Shown piece after piece: positions 2,659 to 9,046 of a stretch of DNA of 64,000 nucleotides. The notes beneath the pieces are model-generated. The model did no database searches. It was not told the origin of the DNA and was given only the letters and a program-made list of their open reading frames with translations. The position numbers were made by a program, and so were the translations under genes. Numbering within the stretch: position 1 is the first letter of the stretch; every line of letters starts with the position of its first letter. Source of the DNA: Trueperaceae bacterium (GTDB lineage: Bacteria > Deinococcota > Deinococci > Deinococcales > Trueperaceae); contig JAXHNB010000006.1 of the NCBI GenBank assembly GCA_034520945.1, positions 864,001 through 928,000 of the forward strand, given 5' to 3'.

Positions 2659-5658
2659 TCAGCCCTCGGCCTGGCGTCGCGCCTTGCCGTGGGCCATGCG
2701 GAGCTTGAACATGCCTCGCTTGTGCCGCGTCGCCACCTCGTCCTCTTGGAGGCCGAGCTCGTTCGCGACCGCCTGGGTGGACGCCGCGCCGTGCCCGTTC
2801 ATGCCCTCCTTGCGCACGACCACCTCCCGGTCCGGCGCGTCGAGCAGGTCGAGGTGTTCGGCCAGCTGCTGGGGGGAGGCCTTGGGCGTGGCGGCCTTCT
2901 TGGTGCCCGTCGCCTTCTTGCCGCTCGCCTTCTTGCCGCTCGCCTTCTTGCCCGCGGTCTTGGTGCCGGCCGCCTTCTTGCCGGCCGCCTTCTTGCTGGA
3001 CGCGGTGGTGCTGCCGCGGTCTCGGCTCGAGCCCTGTGCCTTGGCCGTCCCCTTGCCGCGCGAGGCGCCGCGTCCCTTGCCGCTGGCCTTGCGTGCTTCG
3101 CGGGCGGCCAGCAGTTCGAGCGCCGTCTCCAACGTCATCTCGTCCGGCTTCTGGTCCTTGCGCAACGAGGCGTTGGTCTTGCCGTGCTTGACGTACGGGC
3201 CGAAGCGACCGTCGTGGAGCTCGACGGGTGCGTCGCTCTCGGGGTGCGTGCCCAGCGTGGCGAGCGGCTCGCGGCGTCCGCGGGACCGTTTGGCGGCCAG
3301 CAGCTGCGCGGCGCGTTCGGGCTCGATCTCGAGCACGTCGTCGCCCTCTTCGAGCGAGGCGTAGGTGCGTTCGTGCCGGACGTACGGCCCGTAGCGGCCG
3401 ATGCCGGCATGGATCGCCTTTCCGGTCTCCGGGTGGGCGCCGACGGGGCGAGGGAGGTCCAGCAGGCGGCGCGCGAGGGACGCGTCCACCTCGGCGGGCT
3501 CGACGCCCGGTGGCAGCGACACGCGTTTGGGCTTGCCCTCCTGATCACTGGGACCCAACTGCAGGTAGGGGCCGTACGGCCCGTTCTTGAGGAGCATCAC
3601 GGGGCCGTCCTCATGGGTGCCGAGCTCCACGTCCCCCTGTCGTTCCCGCGCGATCAGCTCGTCGAGCTGCTCCTTGGTCACGTCCGCAGGGGGCCATTCG
3701 GCGGGCACGGAGGTGGTGATGCGCTCGCCGTCCACGTGCGCCTCGACGTACGGGCCGTATCGTCCTACGCGAATCACGTACGGGTCCCAGCGCGCCGCGC
3801 GAATGGTGCTGATCTCCTTGGGATCGATGCCGTCGATGCCACGCGCCACCCGTGCTTCGATGCCCTCGTCGCCGCCGTAGAAGCCGCGCAGGTAGGGGAT
3901 CGCCTCGAGCGTGCCGGCGGCGATCTCGTCGAGCTTGGCCTCCATCTCGGCGGTGAACTCGGTGTCCACGAGCTGCGCGAACTGCTCCTCGAGCAGGTTG
4001 TTGGTCGCGAACGCCGTGAAGGTCGGCACCAACTGCGAACCGTTCTTGCGCACGTACCCCCGGCGCACGATGGTGTCGATGATGCTGGCGTAGGTGCTCG
4101 GACGGCCGATCCCTTCCTGCTCCAGCGTCTTGACGAGCGACGCCTCGGTGAACCTGGCGGGTGGACGGGTCTCGTGCCCACTGGGGGTCAGCGCCTCCGC
4201 CACCAGCGCCTGGCGTTCCTGCAGCGGGGGGAGCGGCTGGTCGCGGTCGTCGAGCGCGGCGTCGGGGTCGTCGCTGCCCTCCACGTAGGCGCGGAAGAAG
4301 CCCGGGAAGAGCACCGTCCGCCCGCTGGCGCGTAGCGACAGGGTGCGGCCTTCCGCCTCCGTCTCGATACGCGCCGTGACGAACTTCAGTTTCGCCTCGG
4401 CCATCTGGGTGGCGACCGTGCGCTTCCAGATCAGGTCGTACAGAGCGCGTTCGCGGCCCCTCAAGGCATGCTCGTCGGCGGTCCGCATCGTGGTGCCCGC
4501 GGGGCGGATGGCCTCGTGCGCTTCCTGGGTCCCGCGCGACTTGCTGCGGTACTGCCGCGGGCGGGTGGACAGGTAGTCGCTGCCGTAGAGCGCCTCGATG
4601 CGTGCCCGGCTGGCGTGGATCGCCTCGCCCGAGAGGTGCGTCGAGTCGGTTCGCATGTAGGTGATCAGCCCGCGCTCGTACAGCCCCTGTGCGACGCTCA
4701 TGGTGTCGCGCGCCGACAGGCCCAGCTTGCGGCTGGACTCCTGTTGAAGGGTCGACGTCGTGAACGGGGCCGAAGGGTGCCGCGTCTGCTCCTTCTCCTC
4801 CACGCTGCGGACCGTGAACGGCGCCTCAGCTGCCGCGTCCGCCAACCGCGTGGCCGTGTCGCCGCCGAGCAGGACGAGGTCGCGGCCCTCCTCCAGCCCG
4901 GGTGCCAGCCTGCCGGTGTCGGGATCGAAGTCCTTCCCGGCCGCCAGGCGGATCCCGTCCAGGTGCGTGAGGGTCGCGCCGAACGGCCGGGCGGCCCCCT
5001 CGGCGCCGCGCAGTGTCGCGTCGATACCCCAGTACGACGCCGGCACGAACGCCAGGCGCTCCTTCTCCCGCTGCACCAGGATGCGCACCGCCACCGACTG
5101 AACGCGCCCCGCCGAAAGGCGGGGGGCGATCTTGCGCCACAGCAGCGGGCTGATGGTGTAGCCCACCAGCCGGTCCAACAGGCGGCGGGTCTCCTGCGCC
5201 TCGACCAGGCTGCGGTCGATGTCGCGCGTGTCCGCCAGCGCGTTCTCGATCGCCTCCTCGGTGATCTCGTGGAACACCATGCGCTTCACGGGCACGTCGG
5301 GCTTCAGGAGCTCCAGCAGGTGCCACCCGATCGATTCGCCCTCGCGGTCCTCGTCCGTCGCGATGACCAACTCGTCCACGTTGCGGAGGGCCTTCTTGAG
5401 GTCGCGCACCACGTCCGGTTTCGTGACCACGTACAACGGCTCGAAGTCGTTGTCGACGCGCATGCCCAGACGGGCCCAGCTCTCGCCACGGTACCGGTCG
5501 GGGATGTCGTTCGCCGAGGCGGGCAGGTCGCGCACGTGGCCCATGCTGGCCATCACCTCGTACCTGCTGGGCAGGTAGCGGCGGATGGTCCGAGCTTTGG
5601 TGGGCGACTCCACGATGACGAGGCTTCGTCCCGAAGATGCGTTGGTCGTAGGTGCCAT
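2659..5658 (-). CDS. topA: DNA topoisomerase I (type IA) with Topo C-terminal repeats, Lys-rich repeat linker and terminal sigma4-like domain
   Basis: LVIVESPTKA, ATDEDREGE TOPRIM, SAGRVQS, ITYMRTDS (catalytic Tyr), QEAHEAIRP, GIGRPSTY; repeated GRYGPYV; SD-like AAGGGA before ATG 5658. Confidence 0.96.
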   Translation of the reverse strand: MAPTTNASSGRSLVIVESPTKARTIRRYLPSRYEVMASMGHVRDLPASANDIPDRYRGESWARLGMRVDNDFEPLYVVTKPDVVRDLKKALRNVDELVIATDEDREGESIGWHLLELLKPDVPVKRMVFHEITEEAIENALADTRDIDRSLVEAQETRRLLDRLVGYTISPLLWRKIAPRLSAGRVQSVAVRILVQREKERLAFVPASYWGIDATLRGAEGAARPFGATLTHLDGIRLAAGKDFDPDTGRLAPGLEEGRDLVLLGGDTATRLADAAAEAPFTVRSVEEKEQTRHPSAPFTTSTLQQESSRKLGLSARDTMSVAQGLYERGLITYMRTDSTHLSGEAIHASRARIEALYGSDYLSTRPRQYRSKSRGTQEAHEAIRPAGTTMRTADEHALRGRERALYDLIWKRTVATQMAEAKLKFVTARIETEAEGRTLSLRASGRTVLFPGFFRAYVEGSDDPDAALDDRDQPLPPLQERQALVAEALTPSGHETRPPARFTEASLVKTLEQEGIGRPSTYASIIDTIVRRGYVRKNGSQLVPTFTAFATNNLLEEQFAQLVDTEFTAEMEAKLDEIAAGTLEAIPYLRGFYGGDEGIEARVARGIDGIDPKEISTIRAARWDPYVIRVGRYGPYVEAHVDGERITTSVPAEWPPADVTKEQLDELIARERQGDVELGTHEDGPVMLLKNGPYGPYLQLGPSDQEGKPKRVSLPPGVEPAEVDASLARRLLDLPRPVGAHPETGKAIHAGIGRYGPYVRHERTYASLEEGDDVLEIEPERAAQLLAAKRSRGRREPLATLGTHPESDAPVELHDGRFGPYVKHGKTNASLRKDQKPDEMTLETALELLAAREARKASGKGRGASRGKGTAKAQGSSRDRGSTTASSKKAAGKKAAGTKTAGKKASGKKASGKKATGTKKAATPKASPQQLAEHLDLLDAPDREVVVRKEGMNGHGAASTQAVANELGLQEDEVATRHKRGMFKLRMAHGKARRQAEG
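2894..2999. repeat. Degenerate 15-bp coding tandem repeat encoding KKAAG/KKASG units in the TopA tail
   Basis: Repeated gccttcttgccgctc / gccttcttgccggcc units. Confidence 0.85.
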
Positions 5659-5683
5659 GCGGTCCCTTCCGGTTCGCGCCGCC

Positions 5684-5711
5684 ATTATATGGACGCCCGG
5701 CCTGAAGTCAA
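5684..5711 (-). promoter_or_regulatory. Near-consensus sigma70-type promoter for topA (TTGACT-16-TATAAT)
   Basis: Minus-strand TTGACT at 5711-5706 and TATAAT at 5689-5684, which stand out in GC-rich DNA. Confidence 0.7.
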
Positions 5712-5748: not shown

Positions 5749-6351
5749 TCAGAGCCGGCGTCGATGCGTGATGGCGCGCCCCAAGGTCACCTCGTCGGCG
5801 TACTCCAGATCGCCCCCGACCGGCAGACCGTACGCGATGCGCGACACGGGCACGTCGCGTTCGCCCAGCGAGCGCGCCAGGTACATCGCGGTCGCTTCGC
5901 CCTCCACCGTGGTGGAGGTGGCCAGGATGACCTCCTCGGCGGCGCCGTGCGTCAGGCGATCGAACAGCGCGGCGAGTGTGAGCTGCTCGGGGCCGATGCC
6001 GTTCATGGGCGACAGCGCGCCGTGCAGCACGTGGTACATGCCGCGGTACTCGCCGGAACGCTCGATGGCCAGCAGGTCCGCCGGGTGTTCCACCACGCAC
6101 ACGAGGCTGGCGTCTCGGTTCGGATCGTCACACACGTGGCACCGATCCTGTCCCTTCGTCATCACGTTGAAGCAGACCGGGCACCGCGCCAGCGACGCTT
6201 CGGCGTCGCGGATCGCCGACGCCAGCGCCTCGATCTCCTCGCTGGGTCGGTTGAACAGGTGGAACGCCAAGCGCTGCGCGCTCTTCGGCCCGATGCCGGG
6301 GAGCCTTCCCAATTCACGGATCAGGGTGGTCAGGGCCGGCGGGAAGCTCAC
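5749..6351 (-). CDS. recR: Recombination mediator RecR
   Basis: LPGIGPKSAQRLAF HhH, CPVC..CHVC zinc finger, YHVLHGALSP, EGEATA TOPRIM. Confidence 0.96.
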   Translation of the reverse strand: MSFPPALTTLIRELGRLPGIGPKSAQRLAFHLFNRPSEEIEALASAIRDAEASLARCPVCFNVMTKGQDRCHVCDDPNRDASLVCVVEHPADLLAIERSGEYRGMYHVLHGALSPMNGIGPEQLTLAALFDRLTHGAAEEVILATSTTVEGEATAMYLARSLGERDVPVSRIAYGLPVGGDLEYADEVTLGRAITHRRRL

Positions 6352-6358
6352 CTTCGGG

Positions 6359-6697
6359 TCAGAACTGGCCGGGCAGACCGCCCATGCCGCCCATGCCGCC
6401 GAGACCGCCCATGTCCCCCATGGCGCCGCCCATCTCCTCCTGCTGGAGCTCCTTGGCCTTGCGCTGCGCGTCCGCGACGGCGGCGGCGACCAGATCCTCG
6501 AGCAGTTCGGCGTCCTCGGGATCGATCGCGCTGGGATCGATGTGCACCTTGGTGACGTCGCCCGCCCCGGTGGCGGTCACGGTGACGAGGCCCCCGCCCG
6601 CGCTCCCCTCGACCGTCATCTCGGCCAGTCGTTCCTGGGCCTGCGACATCTTCTCTTGCGCCTTTTGCGCTTCCTTCATGAGCTTCTGGATGTTCAT
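6359..6697 (-). CDS. ybaB: YbaB/EbfC nucleoid-associated protein
   Basis: MNIQKLMKEAQKAQ..., GSAGGGLVTV, DPEDAELLEDLVAAA; canonical dnaX-ybaB-recR order. Confidence 0.93.
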   Translation of the reverse strand: MNIQKLMKEAQKAQEKMSQAQERLAEMTVEGSAGGGLVTVTATGAGDVTKVHIDPSAIDPEDAELLEDLVAAAVADAQRKAKELQQEEMGGAMGDMGGLGGMGGMGGLPGQF

Positions 6698-6744: not shown

Positions 6745-7389
6745 TCACGCCTCGGGGTCGGCGGCCGGCGCTGCGCCCGTTGCGTCTTCGGCGTCGGCAT
6801 CCGCCTCGGCCGCTGCCGTGGGCTCCGTCGCGACGGTCGCCGTGTCGGTCGCTGCGTCGTCCTCGCTGGGCGACGAGCCGGGATCCAGGGCCACCATCCG
6901 GCCGGGGAACAGCCGTTGCACCATCTCGAACGGATCGTCCGCTGTGGCGGTGGCTCCGGCCTCTGGGGCGGCCGCGGGCGCCCCGGGCTCCACGGCCGCG
7001 CCCGCGGGGCGCTCTTCCGGCGGAGCCGGGGCCGGAGGAGCGGCCGGCTCGTTCGGCGGCGGGGTCGACGGCGCCTCGTCCGACGGCGCCTCGTCCGACG
7101 GCGCTGCGTCCGATAACGCTGCGTCCGACGGCGCAGCCTCGGAGAACAGGTCGGCAGGCAGGTCTTCGTAGCTGGTGACGGCGTCGGCTGGGGGGCCCGA
7201 CGGGGCCGGGGCGCGGGCGGTGGCAGAGGGCGCATCGTCCTGCGGTGCGGCCCAAGCCTGCGCCGCCTTCTGTGCCGGCGCCGACGACGCCTCCGGTTTC
7301 GCTTCGGTCGTCTTCGGTGGTACCGGCGTGGGCGGTTCCGGCGTGGGCGGCGGGGCGGCGGGCCCTGAGCCCTGCCGCCCCGTCAGGCT
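6745..7389 (-). CDS. dnaX: C-terminal extension of DnaX tau, reached by a -1 shift (or +1 A) at the A7 run
   Basis: Open -1 frame continuing KK-SLTG..., Pro/Ala/acidic linker, then DDPFEMVQRLFPGRMV resembling the Thermus-type tau C-terminal motif; no own start signal; ends just before ybaB. Confidence 0.75.
   Translation of the reverse strand, partial: SLTGRQGSGPAAPPPTPEPPTPVPPKTTEAKPEASSAPAQKAAQAWAAPQDDAPSATARAPAPSGPPADAVTSYEDLPADLFSEAAPSDAALSDAAPSDEAPSDEAPSTPPPNEPAAPPAPAPPEERPAGAAVEPGAPAAAPEAGATATADDPFEMVQRLFPGRMVALDPGSSPSEDDAATDTATVATEPTAAAEADADAEDATGAAPAADPEA
7067..7140. repeat. Five 15-bp tandem repeats in the tau linker (AAPSD/EAPSD)
   Basis: gacggcgcctcgtcc x2, gacggcgctgcgtcc, gataacgctgcgtcc, gacggcgcagcctc. 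Confidence 0.85.
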
Positions 7390-7395
7390 TTTTTT
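7352..7395 (-). promoter_or_regulatory. Putative programmed -1 frameshift cassette: A_AAA_AAA slippery site, 7-nt spacer, GC hairpin
   Basis: CGA AAA AAA GCC TGA C followed by GGGGCGGC-A-GGGC-TCAGG-GCCC-GCCGCCCC (12-bp stem, one bulge). Confidence 0.75.
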
Positions 7396-8990
7396 CGGAT
7401 CGTCTCGTCTGGCCCTTCGATCTCGATCGACCAGCCCGGCCCCCCCACCTCTTCGATCAGCGCGGCCAACTCGTCCTGCCGGCGCACCAGCTGCGAGAAG
7501 TGGAAGCGGTGCTTCTCGCCGTAGCGCAAGCGGACGACGCCGTCCGCGACGTGGTCGTCGGCCGGTTGCAGGAACGCCTTGAGCTGGGCGCCGGCCTTGG
7601 ACTTGACCTGATGCCAGCTGAGCTTGTCGGCGCTGGCCGCAGGGGGCGCGGCACGATCCTCCTCCGCCGGGGCCTCGGCCGGGGCGTCCGCCACCTCGGT
7701 GGCTGGCGGGTCCGTGGGGGCCTGGGGCGATGGGTCCGCGGATGCGGACGGCGTGGCGGCCGCCGCGTCGGCGCTCGCCGGCGCCGGTGGGTGTGCTGGG
7801 GGGGCCGCTGCCGGCGCCGCGCCGGCAGGGGCCGCGGTCGAGGCCGCGGGCGGCCGTGCGGCGCGCCCTGTGTCGTCGCGCGCGTCGCCTGCGCCGCCCG
7901 CGGTGGTGCCCTTCGCGACGGCTTCGGCGACGAAGGGGGCGGGCAGATTGCCGGCCGCCGCGTTGCTGGCCTTGAGCAGCGCGGCCTCCAGCGCGTACAG
8001 GTCGCCGTGGCGCTGGAAGCGTTCGAGCTCGTCGTCGAACTGGTGCAGCGTGCGCAGCAGGCCGTCTCGGTCCAGCGGCACGAGGAACGCCCCCTCCTCG
8101 CCCGTGACGTCGGCGACCAACGCGTCGCGCAGGGTGCGGGCGACCTGCTCCGCCACCGTGCGGGGCGAGAAGCCGTCGCGGTACAGCGCGGTCGCCTCGT
8201 CCAACAACGGGGCGAGGTCGGCCGACGCGACGGCGCGGGCGAGCGCCTCCAGTCGCTCCCGTGGGGGAAGGCCCAGGGCGCGCTCGGCGTCGAAGCGGCG
8301 AATCGGCTCCCCGGAGGCCAACAGTCGTTCCAGCAGCGACTCGGCGTCCCGCATCGCGCCGTCCGCGGCGCGGGCGACGAGGGCCAACGCCTCGGGCTCC
8401 GCCTCCACGCCGGCCCCGTCGCAGAGGCCGGCCAGCTTGCCGGTGATCTCCGGGACCGACAGGCGACGGAAGCGGAAATGCTGGCACCGAGACAGCACCG
8501 TCGGCGGCAGCTTTTCTGGTTCCGTCGTGGCCAGAACGAACACCAGGCCGGGCGGGGGCTCCTCCAACGTCTTGAGGAGCGCGTTGGCGGCCGGAGTGGA
8601 CAGCATGTGCGCCTCGTCGAGGATCCAGACCCGCCACCCGCCGTGCAGGGAGGCCAAGCGAACGCGCTCCCGCAGTTCGCGGACGTCCTCGACGGAGTTG
8701 TTGCTGGCCGCGTCCAGCTCGGTGACGTCTGGATGCCTCGCGGCGCGGATCATGGTGCAGCTCTCGCAGTGCCCGCACGGCCGCGCTTCGGGATCGTCCG
8801 CCGCGCAGTTGAGGGCCATCGCCAGAAGGCGCGCGCTGGTGGTCTTGCCCACGCCCCGGGGGCCGGAGAAGAGGTAGGCGTGCGACGTCCTCTCACGGCG
8901 CAACGCCGCGAGAAGGACGTCCTTCACGTGCTCCTGCCCCACGACCTCTTTGAATGTGGCCGGCCGTGCCGACTGGTAGATGGCCTCCAT
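7383..8990 (-). CDS. dnaX: DNA polymerase III subunit gamma/tau (zero-frame product = gamma-length, about 535 aa)
   Basis: VVGQEHV, FSGPRGVGKTT Walker A, CGHCESC, ELDAASN, LDEAHML, NALLKTLEEPP, SRCQ; TACCAT -10 box 7 nt before ATG 8990. Confidence 0.95.
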   Translation of the reverse strand: MEAIYQSARPATFKEVVGQEHVKDVLLAALRRERTSHAYLFSGPRGVGKTTSARLLAMALNCAADDPEARPCGHCESCTMIRAARHPDVTELDAASNNSVEDVRELRERVRLASLHGGWRVWILDEAHMLSTPAANALLKTLEEPPPGLVFVLATTEPEKLPPTVLSRCQHFRFRRLSVPEITGKLAGLCDGAGVEAEPEALALVARAADGAMRDAESLLERLLASGEPIRRFDAERALGLPPRERLEALARAVASADLAPLLDEATALYRDGFSPRTVAEQVARTLRDALVADVTGEEGAFLVPLDRDGLLRTLHQFDDELERFQRHGDLYALEAALLKASNAAAGNLPAPFVAEAVAKGTTAGGAGDARDDTGRAARPPAASTAAPAGAAPAAAPPAHPPAPASADAAAATPSASADPSPQAPTDPPATEVADAPAEAPAEEDRAAPPAASADKLSWHQVKSKAGAQLKAFLQPADDHVADGVVRLRYGEKHRFHFSQLVRRQDELAALIEEVGGPGWSIEIEGPDETIRKKA

Positions 8991-9046
8991 CCGAGGCATG
9001 GTACCACCGGCCAGTCGGGGCCCCATTCGTCGTAGGATGGCGGATC

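Follow-up and report, generated by a model that had tools for sequence, protein, structure and literature searches.

Antonov et al. (2013; PMC3711429), in the parts of that paper that treat dnaX, described 17 dnaX genes consisting of two open reading frames (ORFs), from 12 genera. Twelve of these genes have poly-A runs (A10 in nine of them; A9, A8 and A7 in Chloroherpeton/Chlorobium), and transcriptional realignment was the mechanism favoured there. The reversed dnaX was taken up by Atkins et al. (2016; PMC5009743), with one unpublished candidate that has E. coli-like signals, in Chlorobium phaeobacteroides. Here we describe the dnaX gene in a 64,000-nt stretch of DNA from a Trueperaceae bacterium (GCA_034520945.1, contig JAXHNB010000006.1, positions 864,001 to 928,000), which is called the window below. 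The zero frame of this gene encodes a short, gamma-like DnaX, and the long form, tau, would require a −1 shift. The site probably works by programmed −1 ribosomal frameshifting, as in E. coli dnaX but with the wiring reversed. Tau couples polymerases to the clamp loader and helicase. The features of the site and of its two predicted products in the window are as follows.

7383..9026, minus strand: dnaX zero-frame ORF, gamma-like product (ORF list, Pfam and PDB matches)
7389..7395, minus strand: slippery heptamer A_AAA_AAA in the X_XXY_YYZ phase, zero-frame codons CGA AAA AAA (sequence)
7383..7388, minus strand: 6-nt spacer made of one sense codon, GCC (Ala), and the zero-frame stop TGA (sequence)
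7351..7382, minus strand: 3′ stem-loop of 32 nt, candidate frameshift stimulator (RNAfold, covariation)
6745..7389, minus strand: −1 frame extension, putative tau-specific C-terminal region, 214 codons and a stop (ORF list, tblastn, G+C content at third codon positions, GC3)
7144..7170, minus strand: acidic/aromatic motif Y-E-D-L-P-A-D-L-F in the extension (LPxDLF or LPxxFW in most shift loci)
6886..6939, minus strand: C-terminal motif DDPFEMVQRLFPGRMVAL, likely the DNA polymerase III alpha-binding segment (conservation, motif homology)

The zero frame of dnaX ended in ATC CGA AAA AAA GCC TGA, with the stop at 7385..7383 on the minus strand. The original prediction, made from the window's letters and their ORFs, had read the same 3′ end and a product of 535 amino acids (aa), and the sequence agreed when counted from ATG 8990. 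From the first ATG, 9026, the product is 547 aa long, and the true start may be ATG 8999 (538 aa) or ATG 8990 (MEAIYQ..., 535 aa). Read in the −1 frame, the sequence continues K-K-S-L-T-G-R..., and past both lysines 214 codons follow to 6748, before the stop at 6747..6745. A long product of ∼748 aa in total, counted from ATG 8990, is thus predicted, and the ORF list bore out the 214 further residues that had been announced after K-K-S-L-T. The two dnaX ORFs overlap and are related by −1, with the zero-frame stop right after the site, and the heptamer stands in the zero-frame phase X_XXY_YYZ. On A_AAA_AAA both slipped tRNAs re-pair perfectly. Genes for tRNA-Lys(UUU) and tRNA-Lys(CUU) are both present in the window's own genome.

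Only 8 A or T runs of seven or longer occur in this genome (3.47 Mb, 70.8% GC). The A7 run at dnaX was crossed, with no indel there, by Logan contigs from two studies (X1 record 5 and X3 record 13), of which X1 may be the source sample; read support for A7 had been named as a check, and the comparison was made with these assembled contigs. Nothing from a further run, X10, aligned to the stretch. The only length difference in the Logan contigs was an insertion or deletion of 15 nt near 7322, a multiple of three, inside the extension. The unit concerned encodes a Pro/Thr-rich pentapeptide (∼7308-7337, minus strand) and varies in copy number in frame: compared with the window, one X1 contig carries an extra unit and one X3 contig lacks one. 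As a separate observation on the A-runs, two of the three A8 runs of the genome (G000:C6:541798-541805 and G000:C9:171590-171597) lie in near-identical 30-nt contexts just past an ATG or GTG, which suggests a repeated gene or element with an A8 run at its start.

The zero-frame product belongs to the DnaX clamp-loader family, having an AAA+ module with lid and a weakly matched collar. Pfam searches gave DNA_pol3_delta2 (PF13177, 1.3e-44) and DNAX_ATPase_lid (PF22608, 1.3e-10), together with weak matches to DNA_pol3_gamma3 (PF12169, the collar) and, at residues 464-535, to DnaX_C (PF20964). In PDB the E. coli gamma/tau chains were matched at E ∼1e-63. By these domains the predicted product is a gamma-like DnaX that keeps a small C-terminal globular domain, as Thermus gamma does. 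The earlier description of it as gamma stands as far as a short zero-frame form is concerned; it does not hold in the sense of a bare domain I-III protein, since the globular domain is retained (weak PF20964 match).

dnaX was found in all 31 genomes of a first set, made up of the window's own genome, 18 genomes of the same family and 12 from four other families of the order. Twenty-eight of these loci were walked frame by frame; L012 ran off its contig, and L008 and L009, cut by contig ends, were not walked. The shift layout (A_AAA_AAR, one sense codon, zero-frame stop, open −1 frame) was present in 13 of the 28 walked loci, all from the window's family. Tau was in one frame in two family loci (L014, L016) and in all 12 loci of the other families. 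By tblastn, the window extension matched the −1 frame of nine first-set loci with E values of 1e-12 to 1e-29.

The full set held one genome per species and 80 further loci, which were the best 80 of 219 relatives, with record titles of Trueperaceae, Truepera or Deinococcota metagenome-assembled genomes (MAGs). After 11 duplicates were dropped, 87 unique family loci remained, the window included, family being taken from the record titles and some classes being checked by eye. They were classed as follows.

61 loci: heptamer in phase ahead of the zero-frame stop, with the −1 ORF open
1 locus (L091): G_AAA_AAA, likewise in need of −1
12 loci: tau in frame
1 locus (L079): site masked by N
12 loci: cut by contig ends

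A −1 shift is thus needed in 62 of the 74 decidable species-level family loci. The claim of inverted recoding, with a short gamma in the zero frame and tau dependent on −1, was upheld by these counts, and the alignment of dnaX from relatives that had been proposed alongside it gave the same −1 layout throughout most of the family. Among the 61 canonical loci the heptamer was A_AAA_AAA in 30, A_AAA_AAG in 28 and C_CCA_AAA in three. The A-run was six long in 27 of them, seven in 24, eight in five, nine in two and four in three. One sense codon separated heptamer and stop in 55 loci, two in five loci and nine in a single locus. The zero-frame stops at shift loci were TGA (36), TAG (13) and TAA (12), with A7 and TAA combined in one related MAG (L062), and the direction of the shift was −1 in every shift locus. 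A Shine-Dalgarno (SD)-like 4-mer (GGAG or GAGG) was found 8-15 nt 5′ of the site in 30 of the 61 canonical loci, compared with 13.8% of random positions, and it overlaps conserved Gly-Pro-Gly/Glu codons.

The trait had been suggested as possibly shared with Deinococcus. It proved instead to be one of Trueperaceae: the sister family (three genomes) has tau in one frame and no A-run. As for the split Deinococcus dnaX named in support, DR_2410/DR_2411, PMC11219805 reports that the R1 sequence of D. radiodurans differs there by a single base. In all nine loci of three other families (L019, L022, L024-L030), tau is in frame and the homologous K-K site has an A8 or A9 run. It seems that the A-rich site is older than either wiring.

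A gene tree of the DnaX N-terminal part was computed by quick maximum likelihood (86 rows, 347 columns, LG+G4, support by the Shimodaira-Hasegawa-like approximate likelihood ratio test only, L023 left out). Every deep branch of the family had the shift state, with the in-frame loci nested inside it. The fewest state changes were 4 when the masked L079 was omitted and 5 if the 12 outgroup rows were coded as in-frame. This gene tree, from a short search, suggests that the shift came first and that in-frame returns followed. One locus of a Trueperaceae-type MAG (L073) has in-frame tau by way of A9, with a −1 frame stop two codons later, which is the Thermus/E. coli wiring among reverse-wired relatives.

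In the window, a stem-loop starts at the 7th nt past the heptamer, directly after the stop. A 12-bp GC hairpin had been predicted 7 nt past the heptamer; its start was correct, and in place of the 12 pairs RNAfold gave 14 (9 + 5), one A being bulged, at −29.6 kcal/mol. Only 1 of 3000 random window positions, taken as a fixed start, had a hairpin of equal or greater strength. In all 13 shift loci of the first set the stem starts exactly at the nucleotide after the zero-frame stop, and stems as strong were obtained at 0 to 5.3% of random positions of each of these loci. A stable and structurally conserved 3′ structure lies within the range of 5-9 nt downstream of the heptamer.

A covariance model was trained on 8 loci and run over 99 loci. 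Of its 72 matches, 56 have the slippery run on the 5′ side of the stem. The 12 in-frame family loci gave no match, and no outgroup was matched at its site; the sole outgroup match, L028, was partial, away from the site and at E 0.19. Pairing cells made up 94% in the 48 non-training site rows versus a mean of 81.5% and a maximum of 85.3% in 500 shuffles. Compensatory changes were seen at pair 24-92 (GC 36, AT 16, GT 3), pair 25-91 (GC 40, GT 7, AT 5, CG 2) and pair 31-85 (GC 8, CG 8), counts that overstate independence, the alignment being fitted to the model and the rows being related. RNAalifold on a plain MAFFT alignment recovered 4 pairs only, because loop lengths differ between loci.

The downstream ORF carries two tail motifs that are common to the in-frame taus of 12 family and 12 outgroup loci, as expected of the tau-specific C-terminal part. 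The 12 family loci with tau in one frame contain both motifs within that frame, and each of the other families of the order has recognisable variants of them. The first motif takes the form L-P-x-x-F-W in other genera, and it is likewise present in the in-frame taus of the family. In the C-terminal motif, (Q)-x-L-F-P-G-R, F and G were invariant and P was conserved in at least 90% among 40 aligned tails. GC3 in the extension was highest in the −1 frame (0.84 vs 0.80 and 0.70). To judge from the sequence, the −1 ORF is coding, because it has two conserved motifs, the highest GC3 and a strain indel of 15 nt, a multiple of three. No ATG, GTG or TTG was present among the first 132 extension codons.

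The extension had no Pfam match, and PDB searches with it and with the window's pre-site C-terminal domain gave no match. Protein homologue searches with the extension found none; the query is of low complexity, so that these searches are uninformative on public annotation. The tail of a Thermus-like relative matched PDB 4iqj_M (Taq tau_c) at E 1.8e-44, and the link from the window tail to 4IQJ runs only through this relative, in which the globular domain lies before the A9 run and the tail, including the matching motif, after it; the 4iqj_M chain covers both parts. In the 4IQJ study, by Liu, Lin and Steitz in 2013, tau_c is said to contact the alpha C-terminal domain through its C-terminal helix.

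The complex of alpha and tail was modelled with the C-terminal 300 aa of the genome's own DnaE (21-row alignment) and a 49-aa tail segment (40 rows). The score was 0.53, compared with 0.00 for the best of 3 controls, and was graded as weak support; at least 83% of contacts agreed between runs, and the predicted local distance difference test score (pLDDT) of the partner was at least 56. In the calibration of this score, 116 of 157 solved complexes passed the mark, as did 2 of 215 mismatched pairs; both of these mismatches and only 18 of the 157 solved complexes did so at 0.60 or below. From motif homology, the 4IQJ study and this weak score, the LFPGR segment most likely binds the alpha subunit of DNA polymerase III.

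Two further observations concern the alpha subunit. Of 21 sequences of the replicative DnaE compared across the order (L113, L115-L143), 16 end in V-P-F, that of the window's genome among them. Besides the replicative dnaE on C5, the genome has, outside the window, a second gene of the DNA_pol3_alpha family (G000:C2:205848-206627, open frame of 1123 aa).

Two products would arise at this site as follows. In standard reading of CGA AAA AAA, one alanine would be added and translation would stop at UGA, giving the gamma-like DnaX with ATPase, collar and a small globular domain at the C-terminus. Some of the ribosomes, held up by a stem-loop 6 nt downstream that resists unwinding, would let both tRNA-Lys move one base backwards on A_AAA_AAA. 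After the slip the −1 frame would be read for 214 codons, giving tau with the LFPGR tail segment. The conserved layout, the hairpin with its covariation and the homology of the tail to in-frame taus were observed; the ribosomal nature of the shift, its efficiency and the binding of alpha are inferred. Slippage of the ribosome rather than of RNA polymerase is proposed because the in-phase rule is kept through turnover to C_CCA_AAA, many loci have six A's, the shift has a single direction, and a covarying 3′ stem stands at a fixed 6 nt.

Transcriptional slippage as in Thermus thermophilus dnaX, in which RNA polymerase would add an A and standard translation would then give tau, was considered improbable as the explanation for this site. 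By its place in the gene the site is homologous to that of the A9 run in Thermus-like relatives, seven family loci have A8 or A9, and productive slippage on A8 was inferred for insertion sequence elements of D. radiodurans in the relevant passages of Baranov et al. (2005; PMC1088944). On the other hand, 27 shift loci have six A's and three have C_CCA_AAA with four A's, runs so short that they are poor substrates for slippage by RNA polymerase, and A or T runs of seven or longer number at most 8 in the genome. The in-phase rule, the single direction and the covarying hairpin 6 nt 3′ are ribosomal signals without a role in slippage. In the Thermus type the run is about A9, the zero frame encodes tau and both other frames are closed by stops; the window has A7, with tau in the −1 frame. 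Some transcriptional contribution may occur at runs of A7 to A9.

A sequencing or assembly error, or a recent pseudogene, with a real gene of A8 and tau in frame, had been the alternative offered at the outset. Homopolymers are error-prone and all compared genomes are metagenome assemblies. The same frame relation was nevertheless found in 61 other species-level genomes with differing heptamers and stop codons, A7 was present in contigs from two studies, and the zero-frame stop is kept one codon past the site. The alternative is refuted by this conservation and by the A7 contigs, and its remaining probability is negligible. Production of the downstream ORF as a separate small protein, or not at all, with tau functions supplied otherwise, is very improbable. 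Gene callers would see two ORFs, and the fused product is predicted only. Against a separate product, the first 132 extension codons hold no start-like codon, so that the first conserved motif would be missing from it; 12 family loci and all 12 outgroup loci have the same sequence joined in frame to DnaX; and throughout the family it is the −1 frame in which the motifs are conserved.

Several points weigh against the reading of the site as a reverse-wired ribosomal frameshift with an alpha-binding tail. The gamma-like and tau products are both predictions from sequence. Realignment was proposed, in the dnaX part of Antonov et al. (PMC3711429), for two-ORF dnaX genes with A7 to A10, and slippage in transcription could occur at the A7 run of the window and also in those relatives that have A8 or A9. 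The window's own dnaX site has no upstream SD-like element in the 8-15 nt 5′ of it. A cmscan of 7250..7500 against Rfam, at E up to 10, gave no family match, the curated dnaX element included, and only two sub-threshold hits of microRNA models on the hairpin. The genome's second tRNA-Lys, tRNA-Lys(CUU), means that the relatives with AAG need not share the special shiftiness that A_AAA_AAG has in E. coli, where it depends on there being one tRNA-Lys only (PMC5009743). The relatedness of rows and the model-fitted alignment reduce the weight of the covariation counts. The role in alpha binding depends on motif homology, the 4IQJ study and a weak complex score, and that score may derive from the solved structure of a like complex.

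A broader proposal, that the reversed site is ancestral to the whole family and that the supply of tau is set by the efficiency of ribosomal frameshifting, is considered unlikely as a whole. If it is true, the tau:gamma ratio could follow hairpin stability or lysyl-tRNA supply, and through them temperature, salt and growth or stress state, in desiccation- and radiation-tolerant organisms. About four independent in-frame returns, one of them (L073) to the Thermus/E. coli wiring, would then be natural experiments on the interconversion of wirings.

The genes downstream of dnaX in the window are the following.

6359..6688, minus strand: ybaB/ebfC, the next gene downstream of dnaX (PF02575, 3.1e-34)
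5749..6351, minus strand: recR (Toprim_4, RecR_HhH and RecR_C matches)

The gene row dnaX-ybaB-recR is the usual order and is complete in the window. Beyond it, topA (2659-5685, minus strand) has a long Lys/Ala/Gly-rich repeat tail, followed by ∼70 residues that resemble, by eye in the ORF translation, a small helical DNA-binding module.

The conserved layout indicates a real, family-wide recoding site of a kind already described in other bacteria. The novelty implied by the original prediction is reduced accordingly, reversed dnaX wiring being in print (PMC3711429, PMC5009743). In the literature we found no report linking Truepera to ribosomal frameshifting or to this dnaX layout, and none from Trueperaceae, although T. 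radiovictrix may be among the 17 genes of Antonov et al. Under the frameshift reading, essential tau would exist only through recoding, so that the efficiency of frameshifting would have to be high and would set the tau:gamma ratio. The ∼60 natural variants of one cassette, with three heptamers, many stems, a stop-fixed spacer and several reversions, form a comparative set for the evolution of −1 signals. For annotation, gene callers will give a truncated dnaX and an orphan ORF in Trueperaceae genomes.

In the two-ORF dnaX genes of Antonov et al., as in Trueperaceae, the zero frame ends right after the site to give the short subunit, −1 is needed for the long subunit, and the evidence is conservation among relatives, the prediction being computational only. 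Unlike the poly-A genes of that set, the Trueperaceae genes have A7, A6G or C_CCA_AAA and a covarying 3′ hairpin, which point to the ribosome. With E. coli dnaX (PMC5009743) they share a heptamer of the A_AAA_AAR type, a simple stem-loop a few nt downstream, two DnaX forms (predicted ones in Trueperaceae) from one gene and a stop one codon past the site in one of the two frames; an SD-like element stands upstream in about half of the relatives. The stop is in the zero frame in Trueperaceae and not, as in E. coli, in the −1 frame, so that the two products exchange roles. The position differs too, being close to where the globular C-terminal domain ends and not after domain III, and the window copy, without an upstream SD-like element, shows no likeness in sequence to the curated element (no Rfam match). 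Thermus thermophilus dnaX, according to the part of PMC1088944 that describes it, has tau in the zero frame, both other frames stopping soon past A9, and a transcriptional mechanism. It comes from the same lineage (the same taxonomic order) as the Trueperaceae gene and resembles it in the place of the site in the gene and in the K-K-S-(P)-L-T amino-acid context, and the zero-frame product predicted here, like Thermus gamma, would keep the globular part of tau_c and lack only the tail.

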